From the NCBI GenBank assembly GCA_040005235.1, contig JBDTZG010000008.1, forward strand, positions 1-64,000: a DNA stretch of 64,000 bases, given 5' to 3'. Shown piece after piece: positions 6,848 through 47,562 of this stretch. Positions within the stretch are counted from its first letter, which is position 1. Every line of letters begins with the position of its first letter. Origin of the DNA: Acidobacteriota bacterium (lineage in GTDB: Bacteria; Acidobacteriota; Thermoanaerobaculia; Multivoradales; UBA5704). Both the position numbers and the translations under genes were made by a program. The notes under the pieces are model-generated. The model made no database searches. It saw nothing but the letters and a program-made list of their open reading frames with translations, and was not told the DNA's origin.

Positions 6848-6867
6848 ACCCGGAAAGTGCCGGTCAG

Positions 6868-7602
6868 GTGGCGCCGCGCGCTTCGATCGTCGTGCCGGTG
6901 TTCAATGAAGGCGCCAACATCGCCGCGTTCTGCCGTCGAGCGCTGGAGATCTTTCCGGCCGACGCCGAGATCCTGATCGCCTACGATTTCGACGGCGACG
7001 ACACGCTGCCGGCTCTCGCGGCTCTCTCGGATGAGGAGAAACCGCGCGGCCTGCGGCTGGTGAAGAACGATCTCGGCCGGGGAGTCCGCTACGCGATCGA
7101 AGCGGGCATGCGCGCGGCGCGCTCGTCTGTAGTCGTCGTCTCGATGGCGGACCTCTCGGACGACTACGCGAAGCTCGAAGAGATGATCCGCCGAGCGGCC
7201 GAAGGAGCCGCCGTGGTGGTCGCGAGCCGCTACACCCAAGGGGGCGCGCAGCACGGCGGCCCCTGGCTCAAAGGCCAGCTGAGCCGCGCCGCGGGCGTGT
7301 CGCTCCATTACCTCGCGGGCCTGCCGACGCGCGATCCGACCAACAGCTTCAAGGCCTACCGCAAGGATTTCCTCGACCGCACTCCGATTGAAAGTCCGGC
7401 CGGATTCTGCCTCGCCCTGGAGCTGACCGCCAAAGCGCACTTCGCCGGCGAACGGGTCGAAGAGATCCCCGCCGAGTGGTGGGACCGCACGGCCGGGGAG
7501 AGCCGCTTTCAGCTGCGCAAGTGGCTGCCGCTCTACCTGCGGTGGTACTTTTGGGCGATAAAGCAGCGGTGGGTAGGGCGGCGGTCCGGACGTTCCGATT
7601 AG
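6868..7602 (+). CDS. GT2 glycosyltransferase, polyprenol-phosphate glycosyltransferase (DPM1-like)
   Basis: SIVVPVFNEG, MADLSD (DxD-like), VVASRY, DPTNSFKAYR; start (GTG 6868) approximate. Confidence 0.85.
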   Translation: MAPRASIVVPVFNEGANIAAFCRRALEIFPADAEILIAYDFDGDDTLPALAALSDEEKPRGLRLVKNDLGRGVRYAIEAGMRAARSSVVVVSMADLSDDYAKLEEMIRRAAEGAAVVVASRYTQGGAQHGGPWLKGQLSRAAGVSLHYLAGLPTRDPTNSFKAYRKDFLDRTPIESPAGFCLALELTAKAHFAGERVEEIPAEWWDRTAGESRFQLRKWLPLYLRWYFWAIKQRWVGRRSGRSD

Positions 7603-7612
7603 TGCGCAACGA

Positions 7613-8116
7613 TTACTCACCATACTCCAAGCTCTTGTCGAAAGCTGCGAAGATCGCCTCGTCTTCCGACCGGGGGTCGACGACGGAGATGTGAACATCA
7701 ACCCATTTGGCCTGGAAAATAAAATAGTAGTTGACGTTTCGGTGCCTTATGGATTTGCCCTGGAACTCTACGCCCATGTCGTATTGGACGCGAACGTATT
7801 TGGGTGTCTCTGAGACGACCACCGTATCCGGGTCGATGTATGGATTGCGCCGGGCCTTGGGCCAATAGAATTCATAACAATCTTTGGAGGAGCTTCCTGC
7901 GGCTCCAGGACTCTCGACGAACAAAGAGAGGTTGAAGCGCCCCGCGTTGCCCTTGAACGCGAAGTCGTCGCCGCTCTTGGCTTCTTCCGGGTTCGACAAG
8001 GGCGGAGAATCGAAGTGAATCGACCACCCCGCATCGGGAACCTTGACGTTCATTTCCTTTGCGAAGGCGGATCCTGAGACCGCGAGTGCGGCGATGAGCA
8101 AAACGACTCGTTTCAT
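7613..8116 (-). CDS. Secreted hypothetical protein (possible immunity-type gene)
   Basis: Signal peptide MKRVVLLIAALAVSGSAFA, GGAGA RBS; visibly more AT-rich than neighbours. Confidence 0.75.
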   Translation of the reverse strand: MKRVVLLIAALAVSGSAFAKEMNVKVPDAGWSIHFDSPPLSNPEEAKSGDDFAFKGNAGRFNLSLFVESPGAAGSSSKDCYEFYWPKARRNPYIDPDTVVVSETPKYVRVQYDMGVEFQGKSIRHRNVNYYFIFQAKWVDVHISVVDPRSEDEAIFAAFDKSLEYGE

Positions 8117-8270: not shown

Positions 8271-8666
8271 CTACAGCCTGCAGGGCCGGCCGCATCCTTC
8301 CGGTTCCGGCAGCGCGATCCGCTCGGAGCAGAAGTCGATCTGCTCCTGGAGCGAGAACAACTCCACTTTTAGGAAAATGTAGGAGCCGCCGTAGCAGGCG
8401 TAATCCAGAGCGTTGATTGCCCTCTGGCAGTCGGCGAGAAGTTGGCGCGTGCGGCGCAGGTTGAAACAGCCGGAAACGTCGAGACAAGAGAGACCATTGC
8501 TCCGGCCACACTTGGTCGCCACCTCCTCGTCCAACGGGAAAAACACCGCGTCGGAGCAGTCGCGGGGAGGTTCGCCATAGCCGTCGCTCGCGCGGGCCGG
8601 CGTGGCGGAGGCGCCGACGTTGAGCAGAAACAGGCAGAAGACGACGGCGATTCGTGTGCGCGGCAT
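8271..8666 (-). CDS. Secreted Cys-rich protein resembling the Ntox16 toxin domain
   Basis: GAGGAG RBS, signal peptide, Cys pattern PRDC...L..EV...C...C...C...C...CYGG...C matching my recollection of Ntox16. Confidence 0.6.
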   Translation of the reverse strand: MPRTRIAVVFCLFLLNVGASATPARASDGYGEPPRDCSDAVFFPLDEEVATKCGRSNGLSCLDVSGCFNLRRTRQLLADCQRAINALDYACYGGSYIFLKVELFSLQEQIDFCSERIALPEPEGCGRPCRL

Positions 8667-8710
8667 GAGTCCTCCTCGGGGATTTCGATCTCGCCGAATT
8701 TCTAGGGGCT

Positions 8711-11230: not shown

Positions 11231-11258
11231 ATCGGGTTCTCTCCTTGAGTGTCGCTCT

Positions 11259-30897: not shown

Positions 30898-32032
30898 GTG
30901 ACGCCAAGTGCAGGTTTGCCTTCCCTCCTCGTCGGCTGCCTCGTCGCCGCGGTGGGAGGGCTCGCCCTCGTCTTGTCCTTCTTTCGCCGCCATCGGATCG
31001 CCGATCCGCTGCTCGCGTCGTTTGGCGGGTTCACGCTGCTCTACGGCGTTCGCCTTTTCTTTCAGAGCCCGCTCCTTCCGGGATTCGGCGTCAGCGAGCT
31101 GGCCTCCGATTGGGTGATCAGCCTCACGACCTATTTGATCAACGTCCCTGCCTGGGCCTTCTTCTGGCAGGTGCTGGGTGAAGGCCGGCGTTCGTTTCTG
31201 TTTAAATGGCTGATCGTGACCGGCGCGTTCTCGGTGGTCGGCGTCGCTTCCGATCTGAACCGCGGCTAACCGAACACGTTGAACGGGTGGCCGAACAATC
31301 TCCTCGTGGTCACCGGTCTGGTCGTCGCGATCGCCGCCCAGCTGTTTGCCGCGCCGGCTGCCCGAAGTTCCCCGCCTCAAGGTTGCCGCGCGATTCAAGC
31401 CGTCCTCCGCGGTCGCGGGCGACCTGTATGACTTCCTGGTCGTCGAGGGTAAGCGCCTGGGCCTGGTGGTGGCCGACGTTTCCGGCCACGGCGTTCCGGC
31501 GGCGCTGATCGCCTCGATGGTCAAAGTGGCGGTCAGCTCTCGATCCGATTGCGCCGACGATCCGGCCCGCCTGTTGACGGAGGTGAACCGCACCCTATGC
31601 GGCAGCTTCGAGAGCGGATTCGTCACCGCGACCTACCTCTATTTCGATCCCGCGGCCGGCACGCTTGCCGCGGCGAATGCGGGTCACCCGTCGCCGCTTC
31701 TTCTCCGCGCCTCCGGCGTCCTCCAGGAGATCGGCGGGCGCGGGCCGATCCTCGGCCGTTTCGCAAAGGCAAGCTTCCAGGCGGAGAGCCTGGCCCTGGC
31801 CCCCGGAGATCGGCTCTTGCTCTATACCGACGGTCTCACCGAGGCCCGCGACGCAGCCGACGAGATGTTCGGCGAGGAGCGGCTCGGAGCCTTCGTCCGC
31901 GGCCATGGGCAACTGGAGATCGAGCCGTTCTGCGACGCCCTGCTCGACGAGCTGCGCCGGTTCACCTCGGGGCGTGGAGAGCTGGCCTTGGAAGATGATC
32001 TGACGATTGTGGTGGTGGACGTTCAAGGCTAG
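30898..32032 (+). pseudogene. Membrane-anchored SpoIIE/RsbU-type PP2C phosphatase, disrupted
   Basis: N-terminal TM region with in-frame TAA at 31267, frame change near 31345, then intact PP2C motifs GDLYD, ADVSGHG, NAGH, LYTDG, DDLT. Confidence 0.85.
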
Positions 32033-33064: not shown

Positions 33065-33883
33065 ATGCCGGAGCCACCTGCCGCACCGTCCCCTTCGACC
33101 CCCGACGCCCAATGGGGCAAAGCGACGGCCGACCGCGAAGAGATCCATTTCCTCGCCGGGCCGCGCTCGCGCAGCTCGGAGCTTGCGCGGGTCTTCCGCA
33201 TCATGCTCGAGTTGATTCGCGGGCTTCGCGGTCTCCATTTCGTCGGCCCCTGCGTCACCGTGTTCGGCTCAGCTCGCTTTCCCGAGACGCACCCCTGGTA
33301 CGCGCTCGCCCGCGAGGTCGGTGCCCGGCTTGCGCAGGCGGGCTTTACGGTCATGACCGGCGGGGGACCGGGGATCATGGAGGCCGCGAACCGCGGCGCC
33401 AAAGACGTCCGCGGTCGGTCGATCGGCTGCAACATCGTCCTGCCGCGCGAGCAGCAGCCGAATCCCTATCTCGACCGGTTCCTTGAATTCCGCTACTTCT
33501 TCGTCCGCAAGGTCATGCTGGTCAAGTACTCGTACGCGTTCGTGGCGCTGCCGGGCGGCTTCGGCACGATGGACGAGATGTTCGAATGCCTGACTCTGAT
33601 CCAGACGGGCAAGATTCAAAACTTCCCCGTGGTGCTGATGGGGGTCGACTATTGGCGGCCGCTGATCGAATTCCTGCGCGACACGATGGTGCCCAAGGGG
33701 ACGATCGCGCCTGAGGATCTGGAGCGGGTGACGGTCACCGATTCAGTCGAGGAAGCGGTCGCCGAGATCGTCAAGGCGGGGACCGAGGAATTCGGCCTCG
33801 CCCCCGAGAAGAAGTCGCCGCGCCGCCGCTGGTTCTTGGGCGAGCGCCCCATCGAGGAGGCCGGGGCAGGATCGCTCGATTGA
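33065..33883 (+). CDS. LOG family nucleotide phosphoribohydrolase (TIGR00730-type)
   Basis: VTVFGSAR, TGGGPGIMEAANRGA, FFVRKVM, PGGFGTMDE. Confidence 0.95.
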   Translation: MPEPPAAPSPSTPDAQWGKATADREEIHFLAGPRSRSSELARVFRIMLELIRGLRGLHFVGPCVTVFGSARFPETHPWYALAREVGARLAQAGFTVMTGGGPGIMEAANRGAKDVRGRSIGCNIVLPREQQPNPYLDRFLEFRYFFVRKVMLVKYSYAFVALPGGFGTMDEMFECLTLIQTGKIQNFPVVLMGVDYWRPLIEFLRDTMVPKGTIAPEDLERVTVTDSVEEAVAEIVKAGTEEFGLAPEKKSPRRRWFLGERPIEEAGAGSLD

Positions 33884-33905: not shown

Positions 33906-35234
33906 TTACAGCATCTTGCTCGCCAGGTTCGCCAGCTCCGACCGCTCGCCCTTGTCCAGATTGATGTGGGCGTAGAGCGACTGGCCTTTGATCCGGTCGA
34001 TCAGGTACGAGAGCCCGTTCGAATGCGCGTCCAAGTACGGCGTGTCGATCTGGTAGATGTCGCCGGTCAAGATGATCTTGGTGTTCTCGCCTGCGCGGGT
34101 GATGATCGTCTTCACCTCGTGGGGAGTGAGGTTCTGCGCCTCGTCGACGACGAAGATGACGTTCGAAAAGCTCCGCCCGCGGATGTAGGCGAGGGGGACC
34201 ACGTGAAGCTTCTCCTGCTCGACCAGCTCGTCCACCCGTTTGAAATCGCGCTCGCGCTCGCCGAACTGGTTCTTGATGATCCCCAGGTTGTCCCAGAGCG
34301 GCTGCATGTAGGGGTCGATCTTCGACTTGATGTCGCCCGGGAGGAATCCCAGGTCGCGGTTCGACAGCGGTACCACCGGCCGCGCGACGTAGATCTGGCG
34401 GAACTGGCGCCGCTGTTCGAGCGCGCCCGCCAGAGCGATCAAGGTCTTCCCCGTGCCGGCCGGGCCGCTGATCGTCACCAAGGGCACGTCGGGATTCAAG
34501 ACGGCGTGGAGCGCAAAGGTCTGCTCGGCGTTCCGCGGCGAAACGCCGTAGGCCTGGGTCTTATGGACCCGCTCCAGCCGGTCGGTCTTCGGGTTGTAGG
34601 TCGCGAGCGCCGAGTTCGAGCTGGACCGGAGGATGAAGTACTGGTGGGCGATGGGGGCATCGGACAGAACCTCGCGCGCCGGGAGCGAATCGGTCTGATA
34701 GAGCCGGTCGATCAGTCCCGAATCGCCGACCTCGATCTCCTGCTTGCCGGTGTAGAGGTGGGCGAGATCTTTGATCCGGACCGTCTCGTAATCCTCGGCT
34801 TCGAGGTTGAGCGCCCGGGCCTTCAATCGAAGGTTGATGTCCTTGCTGACCAGGATCACCCGCCGGCCCGGCTCGCTCTTCGAGAGGGCGAGAACCGTGT
34901 TCAAGATCCGATGATCGGCCTTGCGCGAGCCGAAGACCGCCCCCGCATCCACGTCGACATCCTCTTCAGTGATCACCCGGAAGCGCCCGCGCGAGGTGCC
35001 ATCAAGCGGAATCCAAGATTGGAGCAGGTTGTGCTCGGACAATCGGTCCAGCTCGCGGATGAACTCGCGCGCCTGAAGGTTCAGGACCGAGTTGCCCTTC
35101 TTGAAGCCGTCCAGCTCTTCGAGAACGGCGATCGGCAGCGCGACGTCGTGCTCCTGGAAGTTCTGGAGGGCGGTGAAATCGTAGAGGACGACGGAGGTAT
35201 CGAGAACGAAGATCTTGCGCGCGACGTCGGACAT
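33906..35234 (-). CDS. PIN-PhoH (PhoH2/YlaK-like) ATPase
   Basis: FVLDTSV PIN start, VSKDINLR, GPAGTGKT, RGRS, VDEAQN, GDIYQID. Confidence 0.93.
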   Translation of the reverse strand: MSDVARKIFVLDTSVVLYDFTALQNFQEHDVALPIAVLEELDGFKKGNSVLNLQAREFIRELDRLSEHNLLQSWIPLDGTSRGRFRVITEEDVDVDAGAVFGSRKADHRILNTVLALSKSEPGRRVILVSKDINLRLKARALNLEAEDYETVRIKDLAHLYTGKQEIEVGDSGLIDRLYQTDSLPAREVLSDAPIAHQYFILRSSSNSALATYNPKTDRLERVHKTQAYGVSPRNAEQTFALHAVLNPDVPLVTISGPAGTGKTLIALAGALEQRRQFRQIYVARPVVPLSNRDLGFLPGDIKSKIDPYMQPLWDNLGIIKNQFGERERDFKRVDELVEQEKLHVVPLAYIRGRSFSNVIFVVDEAQNLTPHEVKTIITRAGENTKIILTGDIYQIDTPYLDAHSNGLSYLIDRIKGQSLYAHINLDKGERSELANLASKML

Positions 35235-35339
35235 GGGGTGAGGGGTTCCTCCAAAAAATACCGACCCCAAGGCTAACGCACGGCGATCGATCGGACCAGG
35301 GGGAGGGGCTTTCCGAACGCAGCCGACCTGGATGTGATT

Positions 35340-38300
35340 TCAGTTCGCACGGAATTCGCGCTGCCATCGCGAAGCGAGCGCCGCGCGAAGCGGCAGCGCG
35401 AGCGGCAGCAACATCCCGCCGAAAGGGAGCGCGGCGGTCGCCTGGAGGAACCCACCCGCGAGGCGTAGGGGAAGTGGGATCGAGCGGTCGAAGAGGTGCC
35501 CGGGGCGCCAGGGTCGCAGGAACCAGACCGCTCGAACGCGGTGGAGCGCGAGGTGCGCGAGGGGAGAAGCGAACGCCACGGCGACCAGAAGCACCGGGCC
35601 GGCACCGGGAGTCGTGAGAGGGCGGCCGAGCGGGATTAGGGCCGCGGCGAGGGCCAGGTAGAGGAAGAGCCAGCGGAAACGGCGGAGCCCCTCGGGTACG
35701 GGAGCGGATCCCAGGATCACCAGGAAACCGCCGACCGCAGCGAAGGCCAGCACCAAAGACAGGGTGATGACGAAGTCACGCATCCGGCCGGCGCCGGCGA
35801 TCGGGCCGAGGACGAGCCCGAACGCGGTCGCCGCCTGGGTGAGGAAGAGCGCGCGGGCCGCGCCGGGAAGGTCGTTCCGCTCCGTCACAGTGCCGCGTCC
35901 GAGCGCACGGGTCGCCCGCGCGGCGCCGAGGGCCGCGAGACCCGCGACGGCTCCACCGGCGGCCAGCGCCCAGAGGTCGAATCGACCCGCCGCGAGGAGG
36001 CGCAGCCCATCCCACTCGCGCAGGCGGAGGCCGGCTGCCAGCTCCAGGCGACCCGCAAGCCAGGAGACGAGGCCCGCGAGCGCGAGCGCATCGAACGCCG
36101 TAAGAAGGCACTTCCAGCGCAGGAACGAGAGCCTTCCCTTCTCAGCGCGGCTCTCGTGGGTCGGCGCGGAAGGTGAACGAGCGAGTGCCACTTCGAGCGG
36201 TTCATTGGTGTCCGAAGTCCGCCGCCCGTAGGCCGACCCAACGAGGGTCTCGCTTCGTCGCTCGGCGGGCAGGAAGATGCGCAGCACGACCGGCAAGATC
36301 GAAAACGGGGCCGGGAGGAGCACGAGCAGCGGAAAGAGGTCGCGCTCGCGGCGCGGGCCGGGCCGAGCCGGCTCGGTGGCGACTTTTTCAGCCAACTCTT
36401 GGCGCAAGAGGAGCGCCGCGCCGACATGCAGGGCGGCGAGCACTACGACCGCCACGGGGAACGGCGCCTGTACGGCGAGCCAGATCGAGAGCCCGATGAG
36501 CGGCAGCACCGAGAGCGCCGCGGCGACGGCGGGCACGCCGAGCCGCAGCCCCGAGTCGGAGCGCGGTGTTTGCCGCGCAGCGGCGCCGAGATCGAGCGGT
36601 GGGATCGCCGACATGCGACGCTCGACGAACCGGCGCCAGGCGGGGATCAGCACCAAGCCGAGGCCGGGGATCGCGGAAGCGATGCGGCGCGCGGCGATCC
36701 AGAGCCGAGGAAGCGTGCGCGGAAACGGCGTCTTGGCCTCGAGGTAGCCGTCGGCGATCCAGGCTTGGAGCGGCAAGAAGGCGAGCGAGGCGGCGCCGAG
36801 CAAGTTGGCGATCTGGGGCTCGATCGTGATCGGTGCGTAGCCGCGAGGCCAGAGCTGCGATTCGCCCACGAGACCGCCGACCAGGAGCAGCATCGAGCTG
36901 ACGAACGCCGAATCGCCGAGCTCGAAGTGACGCCAGGGGCCGCCGCCGCGCAGATCGATCCGCGCCCGGAAACGGCGTCGCGCGATCCGTTGGGCGCGCT
37001 CCTTCGTGCTCCCGGCCGATGGGGAAGCAACGTCGATCTCTCTCGGGAGTGCCTCGGCGCGGGCGCGCAGCAGGCGCCGGGCGAGGCGCGTCCTCCAACC
37101 GCGAGGCAGCAGCGCGAGGGCAGGAAGGGCCAGCCCGCCGAACGGCAGGGCGACCGCCGCGACCAGCGCCGCGATCGAGAGGCGGGTCGAGCGCGGCAGG
37201 TGCCGATCCGCCAGGTCGGCGAGGCGCACCGGTTTGAGGGCGTTGGAACCGAGGGTCGCGAGCAGCACCACGCGGGCGGCGAGCGCTTCAGGCAGCAGGG
37301 GAGGAAGGAGGTCCGACCGTGTCCTGGCGAGCAGAGCGATGCCGACCGCGAGCGCAAACCCGCCGATCATGCCGATCAAGAGCGTGCCGACTCTCAACCC
37401 ACCCCCTTCGGGATCGGGGAGGCGGAGGGTGTAGTCGAGTAGGGCGGTGAGCAGCAGGACCAGCGCTCCGAGCGCACCCGAGTAGACCGCGAGGGAAATC
37501 ATCGCGGGAACGGCGTGGCTCGCCCAAAGGGCTCCGCCTTCTAGACCGATGAGCGCGAGGCCCGGCGCCACCGAGAGCAGGATCGCACGCGGCAGGGCGC
37601 GGATCAGCGCTCCTCGCCGAGCCATCGGTCCCGCCTGGATGACGTCTTTCACCACGTACGCCGCCGCGACGGCCATCGAGAGGACGAGCCAGATTGCCAT
37701 CGCGAGGCGCGCCCCCTCGATCTCTCCGCTCTTGGCGAGCAGAGCGCCGACCGGCGCCGTCTCGAACGGCAGGAGCACCACGGCGATCCCGGTGTAGAGG
37801 TCGCGCCGCCGCTCGGCCCGGTTCGGTTCCAGCGGGATTGGAGCGGTGCGCCGCCGGTTCTGCCAGAGCGCGAAGACGAACGTCGTCTCCTCGCGCCCTT
37901 CCCGCGCGGCGAGCACCCAAGGCCCGAGGGCGGCGAGCGGCCAGGCGCCGGGCAAGAAGAAGGTGAACGGCAACGCCTGATGGAACGCGCGGCGGAGTCG
38001 GCTCGCTGGGAGGCTTGGAGCGTAGATCCAGGTGGAGACGAAGCCGGCGATCTGCAAGAGCACGTGCGCCGCCGTGGCGAACCGGGTGCCTGCAAGCCCC
38101 GCCGGGGGTGGTGCTGCGAGCGCTGCGAGCAGAGCGAGGAACGGCACGACCTGGCCAGCGACCGTCCAGGCGACGAGGAATCCCAAGTCAGTGCGCAGCC
38201 TCGCCAGCAGGCGGTCGAGGCGCACCAGCGGCGGTCCTCTGCGCGCTACCCCGAGATCGAGCCGCGGTATGCCTTCGTCGGTGTCGCGTCCGAGCCGGCG

Positions 38301-38681
38301 CCAGGCGGGCCAGGCGTGCAGGCCGACCACCGGCAGAGCGGCGAGGGCCGCCAGGAGCGCCCGCAAAACGACCGGCAACGCACGGGCACCTGGTGTACGT
38401 GCGGCGAGCGAGCGGTGCAAGACGATCGCGTTCGCAACGAGCAGCAGGGCGAGAACCGGCCGCCACGCGGGATCGAGGGCCAAGCGATCGACGGGAACGA
38501 ACGAGCTCTCCAGGCCCCCTCTCCTTTCTGCGAATCGCAGGAACAGCAGCCCGCCGAGGCAGGCGAGCCCGACCAGCCTGGCGAAATACGAATCGTCCCA
38601 GGCGTGCCAGCGGGAGGTGCCCTGGGCGGTCCACGGTCCAGCGTTGGGGGAGCGCCTCATGGCCAAGCTCATTGCGGTCAT
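35340..38681 (-). CDS. Large polytopic membrane protein made of two homologous halves; third gene of CHAT-STAND operon
   Basis: Many hydrophobic segments; paired motifs ARTP..R.LP/AKTP..RTLP, PAWRR, IP.LDLG, ALPFGG; ATGA overlap with upstream gene. Confidence 0.75.
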   Translation of the reverse strand: MTAMSLAMRRSPNAGPWTAQGTSRWHAWDDSYFARLVGLACLGGLLFLRFAERRGGLESSFVPVDRLALDPAWRPVLALLLVANAIVLHRSLAARTPGARALPVVLRALLAALAALPVVGLHAWPAWRRLGRDTDEGIPRLDLGVARRGPPLVRLDRLLARLRTDLGFLVAWTVAGQVVPFLALLAALAAPPPAGLAGTRFATAAHVLLQIAGFVSTWIYAPSLPASRLRRAFHQALPFTFFLPGAWPLAALGPWVLAAREGREETTFVFALWQNRRRTAPIPLEPNRAERRRDLYTGIAVVLLPFETAPVGALLAKSGEIEGARLAMAIWLVLSMAVAAAYVVKDVIQAGPMARRGALIRALPRAILLSVAPGLALIGLEGGALWASHAVPAMISLAVYSGALGALVLLLTALLDYTLRLPDPEGGGLRVGTLLIGMIGGFALAVGIALLARTRSDLLPPLLPEALAARVVLLATLGSNALKPVRLADLADRHLPRSTRLSIAALVAAVALPFGGLALPALALLPRGWRTRLARRLLRARAEALPREIDVASPSAGSTKERAQRIARRRFRARIDLRGGGPWRHFELGDSAFVSSMLLLVGGLVGESQLWPRGYAPITIEPQIANLLGAASLAFLPLQAWIADGYLEAKTPFPRTLPRLWIAARRIASAIPGLGLVLIPAWRRFVERRMSAIPPLDLGAAARQTPRSDSGLRLGVPAVAAALSVLPLIGLSIWLAVQAPFPVAVVVLAALHVGAALLLRQELAEKVATEPARPGPRRERDLFPLLVLLPAPFSILPVVLRIFLPAERRSETLVGSAYGRRTSDTNEPLEVALARSPSAPTHESRAEKGRLSFLRWKCLLTAFDALALAGLVSWLAGRLELAAGLRLREWDGLRLLAAGRFDLWALAAGGAVAGLAALGAARATRALGRGTVTERNDLPGAARALFLTQAATAFGLVLGPIAGAGRMRDFVITLSLVLAFAAVGGFLVILGSAPVPEGLRRFRWLFLYLALAAALIPLGRPLTTPGAGPVLLVAVAFASPLAHLALHRVRAVWFLRPWRPGHLFDRSIPLPLRLAGGFLQATAALPFGGMLLPLALPLRAALASRWQREFRAN

Positions 38682-41600
38682 GGCAGCGACGCCACGGCCG
38701 GGGCGGAAGGCAGGTGGAGCGCGCGGGCGAACGCTTCGCGCACGACCGGGATCTCGACGGCCGCCCTGGGATTCTCGTCGCCGAGCCGAGAGGGAAGATG
38801 GGCGTTGAGAAACCAGAGGAGCGCCACTACGGCAGCCGGCCGCTTACCCGTGCGGAACGCGTCGGCGAATCGGTGGGCGAGCGCCGGGCGGCTCACGGTC
38901 GAATCGGCGCGCCAGAGCCGGCGACGCAGCTCGGTGAGGCCTGGGTCGTCCGGTCGCGCGGCCCCTTCGCCGAGCCAAGCCCCCAAGGTTTCGAGCCACT
39001 CCGAATCGGCCGCGTCGAGGCTCGCCCACACCTGCGCTTCGGCTCGCGCCTCGCTCCCGGTGACCGCTTCGGCCAAGGCGTTCGGAAAGGCGCCGCCCTG
39101 CCACAGCCAACGCTCGCGAAGCAGGAGCCGGCAGGCGGCATCTCGTGGCTCGCCCGGCGGGCAGAGGCGGGCGAGGTCCACCGCGCGCTCCGGGCGGAGC
39201 GGCGCGAGGAGGATCAAGGTCGCCGGTTCGCCCAGAGCGTCGGTCGAGAGGGCGCGCTCGATCCATGAGGTCCGTTCGGCCGCGGTGGCCAGGCAGAGCT
39301 CGAGAATCTTCCGCTCGCGCTCGGAGCGCAATTCACCGAACCCGGATTCGAGCGCCTTGGGGAAGCCTCGCGGCGCCTCTCCCGGCAAGGTTCCAAGGCG
39401 CTCGACCGCGGCGGTGAGGATCGGTGCGAGCGTTGGCCATCCGGCGCGCAGCTCCTCTTTCGCCGGACAGACGCCGAGGCTCTCGGGCAGGAGCGCGAGG
39501 CTGGAAGCCACCCTTTCGTTCCTCCGGGTCCTGCCGCGCGCGTCGCTCCGAAGCGTCTCCGGCAGGTTCGCGAACAGGCGGGCGAGCGCGGCGCGACGAT
39601 CGGGCCAGGGCACCTCCGCCAGAGTGGCGAGCCGGCGCGCCGCCTCGTCGATCTCCAGGTCCGCCCGTGCAGGCTCGCCGGCCGAGCCCAGTGCCGCGAT
39701 CTCGGGTGTCGCGGCGGCGAGCGCGCGGTCCGAATCGAAGCGGAGCGCCGAGCGGAGCAGGCCGAGCGCCGTGCCGCGGTCGGCGGCCTCGCCATGGGCG
39801 GCCTGTTCGAACGCGATCGCGTGACGGGCGAGTGCGAGGAGCGCTGCCGCCCGACCGGGCCCCTGCAGGTCCATCAGATGCCGTGCCGCGATCTCCGGCG
39901 GGTCGAGCGGTAGCTCAGCGAGCGCCGCCAGCGTGCAGATTTCGCCGGTGAGCTCACCGTCTTCGGCGAGCGCTGCGTAGAGCGCCGCCGGCGCGAGGTC
40001 CTCGGTGGGGAACCGCTCGGGCGGCAGCGCGGCGATCCGTGCCAGAAGGAGTCGCCGACGGTCGACCATGCCGTCGCACACCGACCGGGCGCGCCCCATC
40101 CGTTCTTCCGCGTCCTGCGCCGTGGAAGCCCAGCGGCGGGCGAGTTGCTCGCGCAGCTCATCCTCTTCCTCCGGCAAGAGGAGCGGCGCGGCGAGCGCGA
40201 GGCCCCGGAGGTCGCCGCGGATCGCGCACAGGCGAACGGCGGTTTCGATCCTTATCTCCGCACGCAGGGCAAAGCCGGCTCCGGCGTGCGGTGCGACGGC
40301 CGAGGCGTAGGTTTCCGCCTGGGCGATCAACCGTTCGAGCAGCGGCTCGGCGGTGAGCGAGCGGGCGAAGTGCAGCAGATCGGCGGGTGTCCTGCCGGGG
40401 GCGAACGCCGCGCCGTCGAGCAGGCCCGCCGCGCGGCGCGGCAGATCGTTCGCCGCAAGGTCGAGGAAACGGCATACCGACTCGGGCGAGGCGAGGGCCG
40501 GCGCAAAACGACCGTCTTCGAGCCAGACGGCCACGGCCTCCAGCCGGCGCTTGCGCTCGGAGCAAGCCGGCCGCGCCGCAAGGGAGCGCAGCGCGGCGAG
40601 GAGGCGCTCCGGCGGCACTTCGAGCCGTTCGAAGGCGTCTTCCGCTGCGGCGATGCGCCGTTCGCTCGGCTCCACTTCAAGAGCCAGGGCCGTGAGCGCC
40701 GCCCGGGCACCTCGGGAGGGAGCCACGGAGGCCAGCCGGTCGATTTCGGCCGCCGGCAGGCAAGCGAGCAGATCGCGCGCCGAATCGACCCGCTCGGCGT
40801 CGGGAAAATCCGTCCCGTCCAGGCCGATCTCCTCACAGTGCGCGCGCGCCGAAGCGGCGTCTTGAACCGCACGGCCGGTGAGAAACTCGATCTCCAGCCG
40901 CCGCCCGGGTGCCTTCTCTCGGAGGAGCGACAGGATTGCACGCTCCTCGGAGCCGGAGATCTCGCCGAGCCGCCGTGCGAGGGCGGGCCGGTCGTCGTCC
41001 GCCGTTTTGGAGAACGCCCGCCAAAGCCCCTCGGCGGCCGGATCGCCCCGGTCGAGCCAGGCCTCGGCCAACTCGCGGCGGATCGCGCGAGAATCCTCGG
41101 CCGGCAGGCGCGCCAGCCAGGCGCTCCAACGCTCGCCGATCTCCGGGCCGGCACGGCGCGCGGCGCCGCGCAGGCGGCCGAGGGCCGCGGACCGGCCCGG
41201 ATCGCGCGGCGGCAGCTGGGTGCTCTCGACCGTCTCGCGCAGCACCGCGAGCGTGGGCTCGCGGAGGGTTTCGCTCGCCAGTCCCGACGCCACCGCGGCG
41301 AGCGCCTCGACCCGCTGCCAGGGATCGGGCAGCCGCTTGGAGGCATCGATTGCGAGATTCCCCCGGCCGCTCCGCGCGAGCGCCGCGAGCAGCTCCGGCT
41401 CCGCCAGGCCGTCGGCGAGGCCCGAGAGGTGGAGGGCGGTCGCGGCGAAGCGGAGGAAGCGAGGCCAATCGGCCGCCGTGATGGCGAGCGGCAGCGCGTG
41501 CTCCAGCAGGTCGAAGACGCTCGGCTCGAAGCCGCCGAACCGCTCCGCCTGGCGCGCTAGCTGGTCGGTCTCTTCGAGGAGCCGGAACAGCCGAGTGCGA

Positions 41601-41725
41601 TCGCCCGCCGCGGCGAGATGGGCGGCGAGATGGCGCAGCGAATAGTCGGCGCGGAAAGCTTCGAGGTCGGTCGTTTCGGCCTCGTCCGGGCTCTCGTCGG
41701 CCGATGGGGGTGGAGCGAGGCTCAT
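38678..41725 (-). CDS. Alpha-helical repeat protein beginning with a STAND post-WHD helical domain
   Basis: N-terminal 'YSLRHLAAHLAAAGDRTRLFRLL', Ala/Leu/Arg-rich helical repeats; ATGA overlaps at both ends. Confidence 0.7.
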   Translation of the reverse strand: MSLAPPPSADESPDEAETTDLEAFRADYSLRHLAAHLAAAGDRTRLFRLLEETDQLARQAERFGGFEPSVFDLLEHALPLAITAADWPRFLRFAATALHLSGLADGLAEPELLAALARSGRGNLAIDASKRLPDPWQRVEALAAVASGLASETLREPTLAVLRETVESTQLPPRDPGRSAALGRLRGAARRAGPEIGERWSAWLARLPAEDSRAIRRELAEAWLDRGDPAAEGLWRAFSKTADDDRPALARRLGEISGSEERAILSLLREKAPGRRLEIEFLTGRAVQDAASARAHCEEIGLDGTDFPDAERVDSARDLLACLPAAEIDRLASVAPSRGARAALTALALEVEPSERRIAAAEDAFERLEVPPERLLAALRSLAARPACSERKRRLEAVAVWLEDGRFAPALASPESVCRFLDLAANDLPRRAAGLLDGAAFAPGRTPADLLHFARSLTAEPLLERLIAQAETYASAVAPHAGAGFALRAEIRIETAVRLCAIRGDLRGLALAAPLLLPEEEDELREQLARRWASTAQDAEERMGRARSVCDGMVDRRRLLLARIAALPPERFPTEDLAPAALYAALAEDGELTGEICTLAALAELPLDPPEIAARHLMDLQGPGRAAALLALARHAIAFEQAAHGEAADRGTALGLLRSALRFDSDRALAAATPEIAALGSAGEPARADLEIDEAARRLATLAEVPWPDRRAALARLFANLPETLRSDARGRTRRNERVASSLALLPESLGVCPAKEELRAGWPTLAPILTAAVERLGTLPGEAPRGFPKALESGFGELRSERERKILELCLATAAERTSWIERALSTDALGEPATLILLAPLRPERAVDLARLCPPGEPRDAACRLLLRERWLWQGGAFPNALAEAVTGSEARAEAQVWASLDAADSEWLETLGAWLGEGAARPDDPGLTELRRRLWRADSTVSRPALAHRFADAFRTGKRPAAVVALLWFLNAHLPSRLGDENPRAAVEIPVVREAFARALHLPSAPAVASLP

Positions 41726-44004
41726 CGGGCGCCGAAAAGAAACTCTGCGAACCGCTGGTTCATCTCGGCGAGGCGTACCCGCTCGTCCTCGATCTGGTCC
41801 TTGCCCGCGATGAAATCGTGGAAGCTCGCATGGTAGAGCCGGTAGCGCTTGCCCCCTTCCGGAGAGCGAACGACGGAAAGGAAGGGCGCCCAGTCATCGA
41901 GCACCCGCCGTACCCGGTGCCGGTCCGAGACCCCGGCGAGCGCGCCGATCCACTCGAACGGCAGCGGTTCACGCGCCGCGGAGAGCGCCGCGAGCACCGG
42001 CAGGCGCTCCCCGTACCAAGTGGCCTCGTCGGCGGTCTTCATTCGCCGCCAGAGGTTGTCGTAGTAGTTCGCGAGGCCCTGCGGCAGCTCGTCGAGCGAG
42101 CCCCCGCCTCTCGCCTCGGCGGCCTCGATCTCGGGCAGGACGTAGCGAAGGTACATGAAGTTTCCTTCGCTCTTCTCCGCAAGGTCGGCGACGAACCGCT
42201 CGATCGAAAGGCCGCGTCGCTCGCGATAGGCGGCGATTCCGGGGCGTTCTGCGGCGCGCTCCAGATACTCGGTCACGTCCGCCCGGTTTTCCAGCGAGGA
42301 CGCGACGATCTCATCGGTCTCGATCCGCTCGGCGCGGAGCGGAATCTCGCCGCGCCGGGCGGTGACCAGAGCGAACACGCCGGCCGGCAAAATCGGCGGC
42401 AGATAGAGCAGGTTGGATCCGCCGGACTGGGCGCCGGTGTCCGCCTCGTCGAGCGCGTCGACCAAAAAGAACGCCCGCTCGCCGGGAGCCAGACGGCCGG
42501 AAACCTGGTCCAGGATCGACATCAGGAACTGGCCGCTATCGCCGCCCTCGGGCGGAAGTGAGCGAGCGAGGCCATAGGCGGCGATCAGCTGGGTGCATAA
42601 CGAACGGAGAAACTGGCCCGGGGTCTGGTTACCGCTCTGACGCTGGTTGAAATATCGAGGGTAGCCTCTCGCCTGGGCGAGCTTCGCGACGACCGCCGTC
42701 TTGCCGATCCCCGGATCGCCCCGAAGGAGAAAATAGCCGCTCTCGGACTTTTCCGCGAACGCATCGATCCGGTCGAACAGCCAGCGACGCCCGGCGAAGT
42801 CGCGGGTCTTCTCGGCGATCAGGCCGCGAAAGTCGGAGAGCGCCTTGCGCGCCCCCGCCCCCGGTCCGGTTCCTACCCCCGCGAGCGGCTCGACGAGCGC
42901 CATGTCCCCCTGCCGGAGGAAGAGGACCGGCACCGCAAACTCGGCGCTCTTGGGTTTCGCCGTATGCACCGCGAGGCGGGCCTCGCCCATCGCGGCTTCG
43001 AGCGGCAGCCCCAACGCCAGCTGGGTATAGAGAGCATGGGTGAAGGCGATGGCGTTTGAATCGCGCACCGACATCTGCATCGCGATCACCGCCGGAACCC
43101 CCGCGAGCACCAGAGCGGCGCCGACGCTCTGAAACGCGTCGCGCTCAATGGCGGCGGCGACGCGCCCCCCTTCGCAGGCGGAGAGAACGACCAGGCGCAA
43201 CTCGTCGCAGTCCTGAAGATGGTCGGCGAGGACTCGCCCCGAGACCGTCACTGGCGCCCGGCGGTCGGAGGAAAAGATGAGCATCCCCTCGCCAGTCTGC
43301 TCGTCGAGCTTGCCATGGCCGATCCAGTGGAGCATATGGACGGCGTCTTCACCCCAGGTCCGAAGCTCCGCGCGCAGGCCGGCGGGCTCGGGATCGGCCA
43401 GAAAGGAAAGCGACAGGCCGGGCACCTTGGAGAGGACCTGTTCGATCGTCAGAAATTCGCCCGCCACGTCGAGCCTCGGCTCCATCTTGGCGTCGCTCCA
43501 GGCGGTCAGAAGCCGAAGCGGGGTGGCGAGCGGTGGGCGGACGCCCCTTGGGACGAAGATCCGCCGCACCACCGGAGTCTTGGCCCCGAGCGCAAGAAAC
43601 TGACGCCGCTCTCGCCGATAGAGCAGCTCCCAGGGAAGGGCCGCGAGCGGAGCCAGCTCCGGCCGTTCGAGATCGAACCCGAGCTCGATCCGCAGACCCG
43701 CCTCGGCATCCCCTTCGATCTTCTCAGCCGCCGCGGCGAAGCGCTCGCCGACCTTCCCCGCGAACAGCCCGTCGAAGAGCCGCGCACCGATCTCTTCCGC
43801 AGCCATCGGCTCCGGTGCTGCAGGCTCCTCGCCACGAGCGGAGCCGGGGGGAACCAGCGCCGCGAGCACCGAAGGCAGCTCGGCCGGCTCGAACGGCATC
43901 CGCAGCGTGCCTTCGGCATCCCCCACCAGGCGCGAGCGAAGGCGAACGGCGAAGTCTCCGCCGTTCACCGGCTCGAAAGTGAGCTGAAGCTCCTCATAGC
44001 GCAC
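41722..44004 (-). CDS. CHAT (caspase-like) protease fused to STAND/NACHT-like NTPase
   Basis: CHAT: LPWELL, HWIGHG, VLSACEG, VIAMQ; NTPase: FAGRRW, GDPGIGKT, LVDALDE, VTAR, EGNFMY, YRLYHASF; GGAGG RBS before GTG. Confidence 0.9.
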   Translation of the reverse strand: MRYEELQLTFEPVNGGDFAVRLRSRLVGDAEGTLRMPFEPAELPSVLAALVPPGSARGEEPAAPEPMAAEEIGARLFDGLFAGKVGERFAAAAEKIEGDAEAGLRIELGFDLERPELAPLAALPWELLYRRERRQFLALGAKTPVVRRIFVPRGVRPPLATPLRLLTAWSDAKMEPRLDVAGEFLTIEQVLSKVPGLSLSFLADPEPAGLRAELRTWGEDAVHMLHWIGHGKLDEQTGEGMLIFSSDRRAPVTVSGRVLADHLQDCDELRLVVLSACEGGRVAAAIERDAFQSVGAALVLAGVPAVIAMQMSVRDSNAIAFTHALYTQLALGLPLEAAMGEARLAVHTAKPKSAEFAVPVLFLRQGDMALVEPLAGVGTGPGAGARKALSDFRGLIAEKTRDFAGRRWLFDRIDAFAEKSESGYFLLRGDPGIGKTAVVAKLAQARGYPRYFNQRQSGNQTPGQFLRSLCTQLIAAYGLARSLPPEGGDSGQFLMSILDQVSGRLAPGERAFFLVDALDEADTGAQSGGSNLLYLPPILPAGVFALVTARRGEIPLRAERIETDEIVASSLENRADVTEYLERAAERPGIAAYRERRGLSIERFVADLAEKSEGNFMYLRYVLPEIEAAEARGGGSLDELPQGLANYYDNLWRRMKTADEATWYGERLPVLAALSAAREPLPFEWIGALAGVSDRHRVRRVLDDWAPFLSVVRSPEGGKRYRLYHASFHDFIAGKDQIEDERVRLAEMNQRFAEFLFGAR

Positions 44005-44204
44005 CGGGCACCTCCCCTCGCTTTGGTGTCGCGCGATTACCGCTCGGGCTTGCGCGAATAGTAATCCTGCGGGCCGGTTCGTTGGGGCGATCGATTCTGG
44101 TATTGAACGCGAGAAATTGCAGAACCGCGGCTCTTATCGGAACAGATCTTGCAGCTCCTTCTCAACCACGCTCGCTTGGAACGTGGTCGAAAGAGGAGTC
44201 CTGC

Positions 44205-45374
44205 ATGACGAAGATTTTCCTGTTGAACCGTCTGTGCGGCCTGGGTTTCGTGGCCGCGCTTGGCCTTTTGGGCATGGCCTTGCCGGCCACGGCCCAGACT
44301 TGCGATGGCTCGGGGGATGGCACCTGGAACGGCTGTCGCGGCACGGGTTGCCATGTCTGCTCGGAAAAGGTTTCCGCCTATGGCTGCTACTTTCTCAACC
44401 ACCCGTCCTGCATTCAGAACACCACGTGCGCCGGCCAGTTCTTCGATTGCGACGCGGGTTGCCCGCCGCCCACGGAAGCCGATCTCTGCGGCGCGACCAG
44501 CAAAGATGGCGACACTTTGTCCGACGTGCTGGAAGACCAGCTGGTTTGGCGCTTTGCCCCGGTCGTCCGCCTGCATCCGAGCGATTCGTACCGGCCGAGC
44601 AGCGCGGACTGGTACATGGCGCGGACCCAGATGAGGTTCGATCATTCCGGTTGCTCGGATGATCAGATTCTCAACAAAGGGCAGGTCACGACCAACAACA
44701 TCGACCTGCAGGCGCACCAGAACAAGAACGGCTGGCCGAGCTGCAGCCACAACAGCTCGGTGCAGTACTCCGACATGAGGACGTCCAACAGTCGGTTCTT
44801 CCTACAGATCCCGAACGACTCCGCCGAGCTGACCACCCGCCTCGGGGCTTCCTCGACCGACTGGACCTGCTATGCGCACGTGCGCTTCGCGCCGGGTTCG
44901 ACTACCCAGTACGACATTCAGTATTGGTTCTTCTTTCCCTACAACGGCGCTCTCGCGGTGGGCCAGGGCGGTCACGAGGGGGACTGGGAGCACATCACCG
45001 TCCGCGTCCAGAGCGACGGGACGACGCTCTCCCAGGTCTACTTCTCGGCGCATGACAACGAGGGGCAGTGGTACCTGCCCGGGCAGATCTCTTACACCAC
45101 CGACGGCCGGCCGGTCGCCTATTCGGCGATCAACAGCCACGCGAGCTACCCTTCGGCGGGCACCTGGAGCCGCGGCATCTTGCCGGCCGACCAAACCGCC
45201 GACGGCGGTCCGGCCTGGGACTGCCGCCGTAGCGTCTGGAACGTCGGCGAGGGCGGATTGCCGCTCAACAAAGGTCGCTACTGGCTGAATTACAGCGGAC
45301 GCTGGGGCGAGATCGGCGAGATCTTCAGCGGCCCGTGGGGCCCCGCATACCAGGCGTACTGGACCGTAAACTAG
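44205..45374 (+). CDS. Secreted Vps62-like protein with Cys-rich N-terminal domain
   Basis: Signal peptide; CDG..WNGCRGTGC..C..YFLNHPSC domain; FAPVVRLHPSD, QYWFFFPYNG, HEGDWEH, YFSAH, SHASY. Confidence 0.8.
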   Translation: MTKIFLLNRLCGLGFVAALGLLGMALPATAQTCDGSGDGTWNGCRGTGCHVCSEKVSAYGCYFLNHPSCIQNTTCAGQFFDCDAGCPPPTEADLCGATSKDGDTLSDVLEDQLVWRFAPVVRLHPSDSYRPSSADWYMARTQMRFDHSGCSDDQILNKGQVTTNNIDLQAHQNKNGWPSCSHNSSVQYSDMRTSNSRFFLQIPNDSAELTTRLGASSTDWTCYAHVRFAPGSTTQYDIQYWFFFPYNGALAVGQGGHEGDWEHITVRVQSDGTTLSQVYFSAHDNEGQWYLPGQISYTTDGRPVAYSAINSHASYPSAGTWSRGILPADQTADGGPAWDCRRSVWNVGEGGLPLNKGRYWLNYSGRWGEIGEIFSGPWGPAYQAYWTVN

Positions 45375-45421
45375 ATTCCGCCTCGCTGGGAGGGGAGGGG
45401 GCCGAACCCCTGAAGGGCAGC

Positions 45422-45890: not shown

Positions 45891-47537
45891 TCACGGCTTG
45901 CCGCAAAGCCGGCTGAGAAAATCGCCGGGCCGCTGTCCTAAGGGCGAATCCCCGATCAGAACCGAGTAGCTCGGCGGAAAGAACGTCACCTCGCCGGTGA
46001 CGCCCGCGCGCGCCGCCTGGGCTTTCACCTCATCGGGCCAATAGGCGAGGAGGGCGAAGCGCTGGGGGACCTGGCGGAGTCCTTCGCCGTAATGGTAGAG
46101 ATCGGCGTGGGTGTCGCAGGGCACGCCCCGAATCCACTCTTGCGAGGCGAAGTTGAGGGGATAGACCAGCCAATAGTCGCCGGCCACGAGGGTCACCCCT
46201 TGCCGACGGAGCAGGCCGAGCACCTGCCACTCTCCGGAAGCCGCGGCGTGCAGACGCTGGCGCATTAGGGTATTCGGCCAGAAATAGACGCTCGCCGAGT
46301 AGAGGGCCACGAGCGCCGCGAGCACGCCGGCCAGGACCGGACCCCAGGTGCGGCGCCAGGTGCTCAATGCGGCGAGGAAGATTCCCAAGGCGAGCGGTGC
46401 GAGAAGGTAGATCGGCAGCACGTAGCGCACGGTGAGGCCGCGGCTCCCTCCGGCTGCGGAAAGGACGTTGATCGCGACGGTGGCACCGATCAACAGCAGG
46501 GCGAGCACGCGCCGGTGTGGGTTGGCCTCGGTGTTCTTTTTCTTGGCCGGAATGGCGCCGGCTTCGGAAATTGCGCTCCGGTCGCCCCAGATGAAGAAGA
46601 AGGCGAAGGCCAGGAAGTAGACCGCGGCGGCGGGGAAGCGGAGCGCGCGGGTGAGGGGACCGGGAGGGCTAGGGCCCCCCTCCGGATCGGTCGACACGAA
46701 CAGCTCGGGCAGCTTGTAGGTGGAGAGGAAGTCGAGGTTGTCGATCACGCTCGCCCGATCGAGCGCCGGCCGGGCGACCGAGTTGGCGCCGTTGAACGAG
46801 GCGAGCGGATGCACGACGTTGTAGCCGATCCAGGGGGAGGCGCCGACCAGAAACCCCGCGAGCGCGAGCAGGCCGATCCGGGCGAGACGCAGAAGGCTCG
46901 ATCGTAAGGTCTCGGACCCGGGCCGTCGGAAGTGCAAGCGGAGGACCAGCCAGGCGATCACCGGCAAGGTCACGCAGAGGGTCTGGAGTGATGCCCACCA
47001 GGAGAGCCCGACGACTCCGCCGAATGCGAGCCAGAGGCCGCGCCGTTCCGGCTCGTCGGCCACCCACGCGGCGAGCCAGAGGGTGGCCGCTGCGAGCGCG
47101 AGCGTCACCGAATAGCCGTTCGGCTGATCCGTCCAGTAGAGGAACGCGGGGGAGGGGAGCGCCGCCGCGACCAGCCCCCATCGCGCGGCGGCAGGCCCGG
47201 CGAGACGGCGCACGAACAGCCAGGAAAAGAGCATTCCGAGCGAGCTGGCGAGCCAGGGCGCGTAGCCCATCGCCTGGCGCGTCGGACCGAGGATCAGAAA
47301 TGCGAGCGCGTGAAGGTACGACTCGATCGCGCCGATCCGGACGCCGTTGTAAAACACCTGAAGATCGCCGGCCAGGATGCGCAGCGCGCACAGACCGGTC
47401 TGGATGCAGTCCGCATCGGCCTGGAACTTGGTGACCGGAAAGATGATGACGAACCGCAAGGCGACCCCCGCAGCGAACAGCGCCGCGGTCGCGAGTCCGG
47501 CGATTGTGATCGAGTGGGAGAGCGACGGCCGCTTCAT
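45891..47537 (-). CDS. GT-C-like (ArnT/PMT-type) membrane glycosyltransferase
   Basis: N-terminal TM followed by 'ADAD', multiple TMs, GVVGLSWW, RYVLP, GDYW. Confidence 0.65.
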   Translation of the reverse strand: MKRPSLSHSITIAGLATAALFAAGVALRFVIIFPVTKFQADADCIQTGLCALRILAGDLQVFYNGVRIGAIESYLHALAFLILGPTRQAMGYAPWLASSLGMLFSWLFVRRLAGPAAARWGLVAAALPSPAFLYWTDQPNGYSVTLALAAATLWLAAWVADEPERRGLWLAFGGVVGLSWWASLQTLCVTLPVIAWLVLRLHFRRPGSETLRSSLLRLARIGLLALAGFLVGASPWIGYNVVHPLASFNGANSVARPALDRASVIDNLDFLSTYKLPELFVSTDPEGGPSPPGPLTRALRFPAAAVYFLAFAFFFIWGDRSAISEAGAIPAKKKNTEANPHRRVLALLLIGATVAINVLSAAGGSRGLTVRYVLPIYLLAPLALGIFLAALSTWRRTWGPVLAGVLAALVALYSASVYFWPNTLMRQRLHAAASGEWQVLGLLRRQGVTLVAGDYWLVYPLNFASQEWIRGVPCDTHADLYHYGEGLRQVPQRFALLAYWPDEVKAQAARAGVTGEVTFFPPSYSVLIGDSPLGQRPGDFLSRLCGKP

Positions 47538-47562
47538 GCCGGCTTTGCGGCCTTCACGCAAT

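Follow-up and report, generated by a model that had tools for sequence, protein, structure and literature searches.

A candidate membrane-tethered split STAND protease system in Acidobacteriota

Three coupled genes and their products

Our analysis covers a window of 64,000 nucleotides from an Acidobacteriota bacterium (GenBank assembly GCA_040005235.1, contig JBDTZG010000008.1, positions 1 to 64,000), in which three co-oriented minus-strand genes encode a protease-NTPase protein, a helical repeat protein and a large membrane protein. The first gene, g1 (41722-44004, minus), has a GTG start and encodes a CHAT-NACHT protein of 760 amino acids (aa), recognized from its open reading frame (ORF) and from Pfam matches to CHAT, AAA_16, NACHT and NPHP3_N. 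The second, g2 (38678-41725, minus), encodes 1015 aa that are modelled by AlphaFold2 as an all-alpha solenoid, and the third, g3 (35340-38681, minus), is an ORF for a tandem polytopic membrane protein of 1113 aa. The genes are joined by ATGA overlaps, one between the g1 stop and the g2 start (41722-41725) and one between the g2 stop and the g3 start (38678-38681). An initial annotation had described this layout, and both the ORFs and the two junctions, read directly on the minus strand, confirm it.

The arrangement is not a product of chance, because the same gene order recurs in other genomes at 28-44% protein identity. The source genome, G000, is 6.2 Mb and 100% complete; the G+C content of the window is 63-73%, and G+C at third codon positions is 0.82-0.84 in g1, g2 and g3 alike, which is typical for coding sequence of this genome. 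Signals for transcription were uninformative: no sigma-70-like promoter was found between 33500 and 46000, and the same interval has 3 terminator-like sites against 8.2 expected from shuffled sequence.

The domain order of g1 is a protease followed by a nucleotide switch. After an N-terminal region of residues 1-118, the CHAT protease domain (PF12770; residues 119-351, 42952-43650, minus) matches with 83.6 bits against a cut-off of 24 (E 2.2e-23). The STAND/NACHT-type P-loop NTPase that follows (residues 403-566, 42307-42798, minus) is matched just above the cut-offs by three profiles, AAA_16 (36.8 bits versus 32.6), NPHP3_N (30.5 versus 24.8) and NACHT (27.4 versus 26.7). The C-terminal helical and winged-helix-like region (residues 567-760, 41725-42306, minus) has a weak Pfam match to AAA_lid_TANC1 and is the predicted docking surface for g2. 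By sequence, the matches of g1 in the PDB are to CHAT proteins only (8tl0, E 2.6e-13; 8rot).

All four motifs that had led to the description of g1 as carrying an intact His/Cys dyad and intact Walker motifs are present, namely HWIGHG (residues 226-231), LSAC (274-277), the Walker A motif GDPGIGKT (429-436) and the Walker B motif LVDALDE (514-520), and they are conserved. We compared them across nine orthologues that are 39-44% identical to g1, and in a further one that is 94% identical: the histidine of GH(G/S), the cysteine of (N/S)AC and Walker A are kept in 9/9, and DALDE is kept in eight, with DALNE in the ninth. From the usual motif positions of CHAT proteases (HG ... AC) we take His230 and Cys277 to be the catalytic pair. 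In a separate alignment both residues are invariant in all eight orthologues.

A STAND protein normally carries a C-terminal alpha-solenoid arm within the same chain. No such repeat or sensor arm lies in the g1 polypeptide, which stops about 30 residues past the motif RLYHxSFxEF (kept in 9/9 orthologues; RLYHASFHDF in the window) and contains no repeats; the solenoid is encoded separately, as g2. The genome has seven CHAT matches to g1, and each of five relatives has 10-19, some of which sit in open frames of about 1300-1630 aa. We considered the large CHAT paralogues of three relatives (1462-1480 aa; G003, G004, G006) as a possible unsplit form. Compared with g2 over the whole sequence and with filters off, they have no homology to it (best E 0.058), so a split-STAND reading gains no support there.

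The g2 protein matches no family in Pfam, NCBIfam or PADLOC, its only PADLOC match being at 12 bits (E 0.022), and its profile has no sequence match in the PDB; nine homologues were found in a word-indexed search of 5.8 billion proteins. The AlphaFold2 model, made from 24 sequences, is wholly helical (predicted local distance difference test score, pLDDT, 90.1; predicted template modelling score, pTM, 0.86). Its closest folds are generic HEAT/ARM-type solenoids such as CAND, karyopherins and SF3b in Foldseek (E about 1e-4, TMq 0.13-0.27), and karyopherins, CAND1 and designed repeat proteins lead the VIA-align matches (Z 7-9.5). In the ESM Atlas the nearest clusters are unnamed (0.93-0.94); a cluster in which 29% of members bear APAF1_C, at 0.85, is a lead only. 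The homologues in G004, G003, G007, L040 and L041 lack profile residues of about 789-909, a variable insert inside the solenoid.

To relate the two proteins, we modelled the complex of g1 residues 395-760 with g2 residues 1-600 in three runs, alongside three controls. The model scores 0.64 (0.64, 0.65 and 0.64 in the runs), and the highest-scoring control 0.00. In calibration, 58 of 80 solved complexes and 2 of 110 mismatched pairs attained this mark, counts that are only a rough guide here because the g1-g2 model used alignments of its own, and the halves of a split gene can also pass by their likeness to solved single-chain STAND structures. The runs share at least 54% of contacts, with a partner pLDDT of at least 83. 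In the predicted interface the last helix of g1 (745-760) and two segments of its winged-helix region (676-684 and 714-718) face the first helix of g2 (13-45). Such an interface resembles a chain break within a continuous STAND protein and would fit a split STAND, and the model supports binding of g1 to g2, short of demonstrating it. The proposal in the initial annotation that gene 2 is a detached sensor arm fits both the solenoid fold and this predicted contact between the g1 C-terminus and the g2 N-terminus.

The third protein consists of two related membrane units, u1 (residues 1-555, 37017-38681, minus) and u2 (residues 556-1113 plus the stop, 35340-37016, minus). Hydrophobic segments run along the whole length of g3, and each unit has about a dozen membrane helices. 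The duplication shows in an alignment of residues 92-530 to 647-1107 at 28% identity (E 4e-20 with no composition correction); with the correction, just a 60-aa core is left (E 1.5e-6). A single profile covers both halves end to end at about E 1e-155 (3.8e-155 for u1 and 6.9e-156 for u2). Thus, the initial description of a duplicated 1113-aa protein holds for the duplication, but the protein is a fusion of two old paralogues, which are separate genes of 570-640 aa in most relatives (for example G004, G003, G007 and L049). Fused u1-u2 forms also occur in L039 and P0005. In the closest relative, G006, an in-frame TGA stands at the u1/u2 boundary (G006:C226, L003; codon 69 of the contig), so that the single g3 is either a very recent fusion or a sequencing difference.

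In a maximum-likelihood tree of 21 units, all nine first-position units form one clade (support 100/100), and the second-position and array units lie on the other side. Old paralogues in a fixed order suggest that u1 and u2 form a heteromer. The unit profile matches 292 proteins with E values of at most 1e-3, 70 of them at or below 1e-30, in a HMMER search of 1.84 billion cluster representatives; most of the 292 are single units of 550-640 aa. Conservation is highest at Pro, Gly, Trp and Leu positions of three hairpin motifs (IPxxGL, LLPxP and LPFGG); a His, two Arg and a Lys are kept at 82-88%, and the unit is Arg/Lys-rich at both termini.

No family in Pfam, NCBIfam or PADLOC matches g3 at E 0.1 or better, a search that distant relatives could escape. 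The observation that g3 does not resemble gasdermin stands, with no gasdermin or other effector family detected in these collections, and the ESM Atlas gave no usable match. An AlphaFold2 model of u2 from 96 sequences is all-helical (pLDDT 84.6, pTM 0.84). It has no significant Foldseek match in the PDB (best E 0.68, TM-scores 0.11-0.15), a best VIA-align Z of 7.7 among 48,161 PDB representatives that covers just a 63-residue hairpin, and a best E of 0.60 among the viral folds of BFVD. This lack of a structural match in the model does not prove a new fold.

With about a dozen membrane helices per unit, u1/u2 might simply be an ordinary transporter whose link to the CHAT-STAND protein is incidental or regulatory. 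The top Foldseek rows are major facilitator superfamily (MFS) proteins, though insignificant, and the unit profile has a weak sequence match to LmrP of that superfamily (E 1.8e-4, 119 residues). We judge the LmrP match to be probably compositional, because structural TM-scores to MFS proteins are about 0.13; across MFS and other transporters they stay at 0.11-0.15, with E 0.68 or worse. Nor do we see the conserved charged or polar residues that mark transport sites, and we know of no transporter architecture with an obligatory pairing or fusion to a 1000-aa solenoid. We regard a transporter as very improbable.

Linkage, fusion and exchange of the genes

Mapping g1, g2 and the unit (u) on 17 distinct loci from relatives, species-representative genomes and metagenomes reveals which of the genes belong together. 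In 10 loci g1 is directly upstream of g2 on the same strand, in the order g1-g2-u(-u): the window, G006, G004, G003, G007 (on two contigs), L039, L040, L041, L047 and L049. In two more, L042 and locus A of G013, g1 is convergent with u-g2, so that g1 adjoins g2 in 12 of 17. In the remaining five (L044, L045, L046, L048 and the G013 array) g1 is not in the available DNA. A unit adjoins g2 in all 14 loci with neighbouring DNA, the other three being cut off by a contig edge. What stays constant is therefore the pair of g2 and u, which g1 usually but not always accompanies: the co-conservation that was expected of the trio is real, at 28-44% identity, and looser for g1. The five loci with no adjacent g1 imply that the g2-u module can work with other partners or alone.

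Gene fusions point in the same direction. Among 160 database proteins mapped with the g2 and unit profiles, 16 are g2-u fusions, nine with g2 ahead of the unit, three truncated in the same order and four with the unit ahead of g2; none contains g1. One such fusion was confirmed in DNA as a continuous ORF of 1548 aa (L048). This recurrent fusion in two orders is our strongest evidence that g2 is physically united with the membrane unit and that the two function as one. Because the fusion occurs at either end of the unit, both unit termini should lie on the side of g2. Being tied to g2, the membrane protein is no less compatible with a role as an anchor or sensing platform than with one as a protease substrate.

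The latter possibility is the main rival explanation and is essentially the model of the initial annotation. According to this model, the CHAT protease, once activated, would cleave g2 or else a cytosolic loop or linker in u1/u2. The closed polytopic pair would thereby turn into a leak or pore that depolarizes the cell, and g2 would be the cytosolic sensor arm of the split STAND. A protease and a membrane protein do share one operon, the three Pro/Gly-rich helical hairpins of each unit (IPxxGL, LLPxP, LPFGG) could line a channel, and multi-cassette g2-u arrays resemble variable effector cassettes. Protease-effector modules released by site-specific cleavage are also widespread in defence (PMC12642450). 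However, the known pore formers described there, Pepco and EACC1, are monomers or beta-barrels that assemble after cleavage, not constitutive integral proteins of 2 x 555 aa. No cleavage site can be named in our case, g3 contains no gasdermin or other effector family, a fused 1000-aa solenoid is large for an autoinhibitory piece, and 5 of 17 loci have g2-u with no protease beside it. On balance, we consider a protease-gated membrane effector unlikely.

Arrays of three or more g2/u cassettes occur at G013:C7, about 76000-93500 (L028, L029, L043), and in L048 and L046. Many of these copies are broken across frames, with no adjacent intact g1, and frameshifted g1-like fragments lie at G013:C7:55286-56777. 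In L044, g1 is absent and g2 is frameshifted. A PMT_2-type glycosyltransferase gene lies directly upstream of g2 there (8388-10031, plus), as one lies upstream of the system in the window (45891-47561, minus); the site may be a syntenic spot of g1 loss, or it may reflect long-read assembly errors. The genome that contains L044, G322, also has an unlinked g1-like CHAT-NACHT gene (L054, G322:C4:470000-489999; 5879-8035). A NACHT-HEAT protein (607-3243) and another CHAT protein (9353-11614, minus) are encoded in the same cluster, which may be another STAND/CHAT island.

Comparing the window with the closest relative provides evidence for exchange. The segment from 38536 to 45400 is 93% identical in DNA to G006:C125 by blastn, with its lower end at a contig end in G006. 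It spans a Vps62-like gene, g1, g2 and the 5' end of g3, and its flanks are 75-86% identical. Synonymous divergence (dS) from G006 is 0.175 for g1 and 0.115 for g2, compared with 0.37-0.77 for g3 and 0.52 for the flanking PhoH gene, and is 3 to 5 times lower in the g1-g2 segment. The mosaic identity and low dS indicate a recent exchange of this segment between lineages, and suggest that it was recombined or transferred between two species of the genus. The ratios of nonsynonymous to synonymous divergence (omega) against G006 are 0.18 for g1, 0.49 for g2, 0.34-0.48 for g3 and 0.07 for the PhoH gene; g2 and g3 thus evolve faster than g1 or the flanking PhoH gene.

The genes are narrowly distributed. 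The g3 protein was found in 6 of 41 close genomes including G000, in 2 of 26 genera, and its presence is patchy within the genus (5/8 genomes, counting G000). In wider samples the unit profile matched 3 of 301 genomes of the class and 1 of 401 of the phylum, G000 alone; these searches scored 3-4 candidates per genome, and the negatives mean not found among those. The class match outside family f1 (G282; E 6.1e-4, 76 positions, internal TAG) is probably spurious. The taxonomic range of the 292 unit representatives rests on 8 named records (seven loci and P0006), all Acidobacteriota and mostly uncultured, and close homologues are titled Acidobacteriota, with Thermoanaerobaculia, Thermoanaerobaculaceae and Holophagales among them. 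Within G000, g2 and g3 are single-copy.

The genes that flank the system in the window encode an alanine dehydrogenase, a PP2C/SpoIIE phosphatase, a LOG protein, a PhoH-PIN protein, a Vps62-like protein, a PMT_2 glycosyltransferase, a methyltransferase and cytochrome bd. The PhoH-PIN (PhoH2-like) gene is directly downstream of g3 (33906-35270, minus), and together with the PP2C/SpoIIE gene (31346-32032, plus) and the LOG/SLOG-family gene (33065-33883, plus) it is ordinary and probably unrelated to the system. Divergent from g1 is a 430-aa ORF with a Vps62 domain (44082-45374, plus; PF06101, E 2.2e-24), which lies within the 93%-identical segment and is not beside g1 in the other loci examined.

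At other loci, genes for GAP1-N2 and/or DO-GTPase2 lie nearby. They are directly upstream of the system in L039 and L049, directly upstream of the g2-u array that lacks g1 in L048, about 6 kb upstream of the G013 array, and about 8 kb beyond the trio of G003, there with HSP70, GrpE and vWA genes. In L042 an HSP70 gene adjoins g1. DO-GTPase/GAP1 systems are predicted membrane-proximal conflict systems with lineage-specific arrays of linked genes, and the GAP1-N2/DO-GTPase systems follow three themes, tubulin, HSP70/GrpE and kinase/PP2C/vWA (Kaur, Burroughs, Iyer & Aravind 2020; PMC7159879). On proximity to defence islands, which the initial annotation had named as a check, the picture is divided: five related loci adjoin these predicted conflict genes, and the window, with its housekeeping flanks, lies in no obvious defence island.

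These flanks lend some weight to a non-immune role, in which the complex would be a lineage-specific regulatory protease for envelope, division or differentiation, vertically inherited at a fixed site and following a logic like that of HetF. Its distribution in one Acidobacteriota family, the single copies of g2 and g3 in G000, the synteny of the PMT_2 gene between the window and L044, and the rank of HetF as the top NCBIfam match of g1 are all compatible with this view. That match is nevertheless far under the cut-off (40.6 bits versus 1200), and patchy presence in 5 of 8 genomes of the genus, the mosaic DNA identity with its sign of recent exchange, the multi-copy arrays and the predicted conflict systems beside five loci all argue against it. 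We consider a non-immune regulatory role improbable, and a membrane-linked role in immunity or cell death is the probable one.

Comparison with described systems

Scanning the three window proteins with the hidden Markov models of PADLOC-DB v2.0.0 bears out the earlier impression that the combination is not a described system. No PADLOC, NCBIfam or Pfam model covers g2 or g3, and the matches of g1 are at the level of domains, far below system cut-offs. For Avs1b, g1 scores 22.4 bits against 1500 with NCBIfam NF041810 and 28.7 bits with PADLOC, over positions 309-540 of 1924. The PADLOC match to SAVED-CHAT is confined to the CHAT region of g1 and takes in positions 102-276 of the 498 in the profile, and there is no Pfam match to SAVED. 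The window locus is also no member of the GAP1-N2/DO-GTPase systems, whose genes are present beside the related loci L039, L049, L048, G013 and G003.

Several known systems share part of the logic. Avs/AVAST, bacterial NACHT and Apaf-1-like proteins with a caspase-like N-terminus have the same order of protease, STAND P-loop NTPase and helical-repeat arm; in our system, in contrast, a gene of its own encodes the arm, which is fused or bound to a polytopic membrane pair. HetF, which acts in heterocyst development and cell division of cyanobacteria, has a CHAT domain with a His/Cys dyad, as g1 does, but to our knowledge no STAND NTPase. DdvA of Myxococcus xanthus regulates defence and has CHAT, helical repeats and membrane anchoring in common with our system, but it is described as a single-pass transmembrane anti-sigma factor with a periplasmic TPR-CHAT part and an incomplete active site, which controls an ECF sigma factor (PMC11506125). 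The CHAT domain of g1 sits instead on a STAND NTPase that we place in the cytosol, with its dyad intact, and the membrane part is a large polytopic pair.

The protease-effector modules with gasdermin, Pepco, EACC1, MBL or alpha/beta-hydrolase partners likewise combine a protease with a membrane-acting candidate partner and share the link to STAND-type sensors (PMC12642450). Unlike the soluble or single-transmembrane latent toxins of these modules, g3 is a constitutive integral membrane protein and matches none of their families. The GAP1-N2/DO-GTPase systems come close in another respect, as NTP-switch conflict systems predicted to act near the membrane with arrays of linked variable genes, but the themes set out in the main text of that paper include no CHAT-STAND protein, solenoid or u family (PMC7159879). 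We found no description in the open-access literature searched of a CHAT-NACHT protein with a separate solenoid and the u membrane family. The logic of a STAND protease is known; we found no account of an arm split off in this way, of the membrane pair, or of such a cassette being shared with GTPase-type systems.

A proposed membrane-tethered switch

Taken together, these observations lead us to propose, tentatively, that the locus encodes a membrane-tethered, split NLR-like (STAND) protease switch, in which u1/u2 anchor the complex and supply or relay the trigger, with the CHAT protease as output. How the signal would travel, what would trigger and be cut by the system, and its part in immunity we infer as follows. 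In g1, the caspase-like CHAT protease would be the output, and the NACHT-type NTPase with its winged-helix end would be the switch. The g2 protein would be a detached STAND arm, made as a separate, translationally coupled polypeptide, whose first helix would sit against the last helix and the winged-helix region of g1. The other end of g2 would be bound to the heteromeric u1/u2 pair, fused into one protein here, which would hold the complex at the inner membrane. An envelope event, such as phage entry or another attack, would be supplied or relayed by u1/u2, and the resulting change would travel through the g2 solenoid to the NTPase of g1. The NTPase would then oligomerize and bring CHAT domains together, and proteolysis of target proteins would lead to cell arrest or death.

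Several results weigh against this tethered-switch model. In 5 of 17 loci g2-u has no adjacent g1, and G322 has its closest g1-like gene at a distance of 1.9 Mb, with neither g2 nor u beside it. No g1-g2 fusion was found among proteins of more than 1778 aa retrieved with the g2 query, which is weak evidence. The fold of g2, as modelled, is that of a generic solenoid of no specific family; a likeness to Avs3 in Foldseek (8dgc_A; TMq 0.27, root-mean-square deviation 17.9) was set aside, as it falls outside the best 50 matches of VIA-align. The conservation of Pro, Gly, Trp and Leu in the units tells nothing about sensing. The window itself has housekeeping flanks and no obvious defence island, and GAP1-N2 (PF20013) has no match anywhere in the 100%-complete G000. 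Finally, several loci in metagenome-assembled genomes carry frameshifts, so that some copies may be decaying, unless these are assembly errors.

A broader and more doubtful proposal is that the locus encodes a bacterial NLR-like machine with its sensor arm wired directly to a membrane heterodimer of undescribed fold. The g2-u1/u2 module would then be a transferable cassette, a ‘membrane sentinel’ that reports envelope events to interchangeable NTP switches, CHAT-NACHT in this genome and DO-GTPase/GAP1-N2 in relatives. The events reported may include the entry of phage genomes or attack by neighbouring cells.

Protease effectors on STAND/NLR proteins are an established theme in bacterial immunity, and the characterized examples each consist of one cytosolic chain that binds phage proteins. 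The locus described here differs from them in that its arm is split off, the arm is tied to a membrane pair, and the cassette is found beside GTPase-type conflict systems as well. If the tethered-switch model is correct, the locus would provide a tractable example of an NLR-like switch coupled to the membrane, and would add two new families to defence catalogues, the g2 solenoid and the u unit of roughly 560 aa, which has no Pfam model. Should the ‘membrane sentinel’ proposal also hold, the cassette would represent a membrane-surveillance branch of STAND immunity, unlike the cytosolic sensing of phage proteins by Avs.

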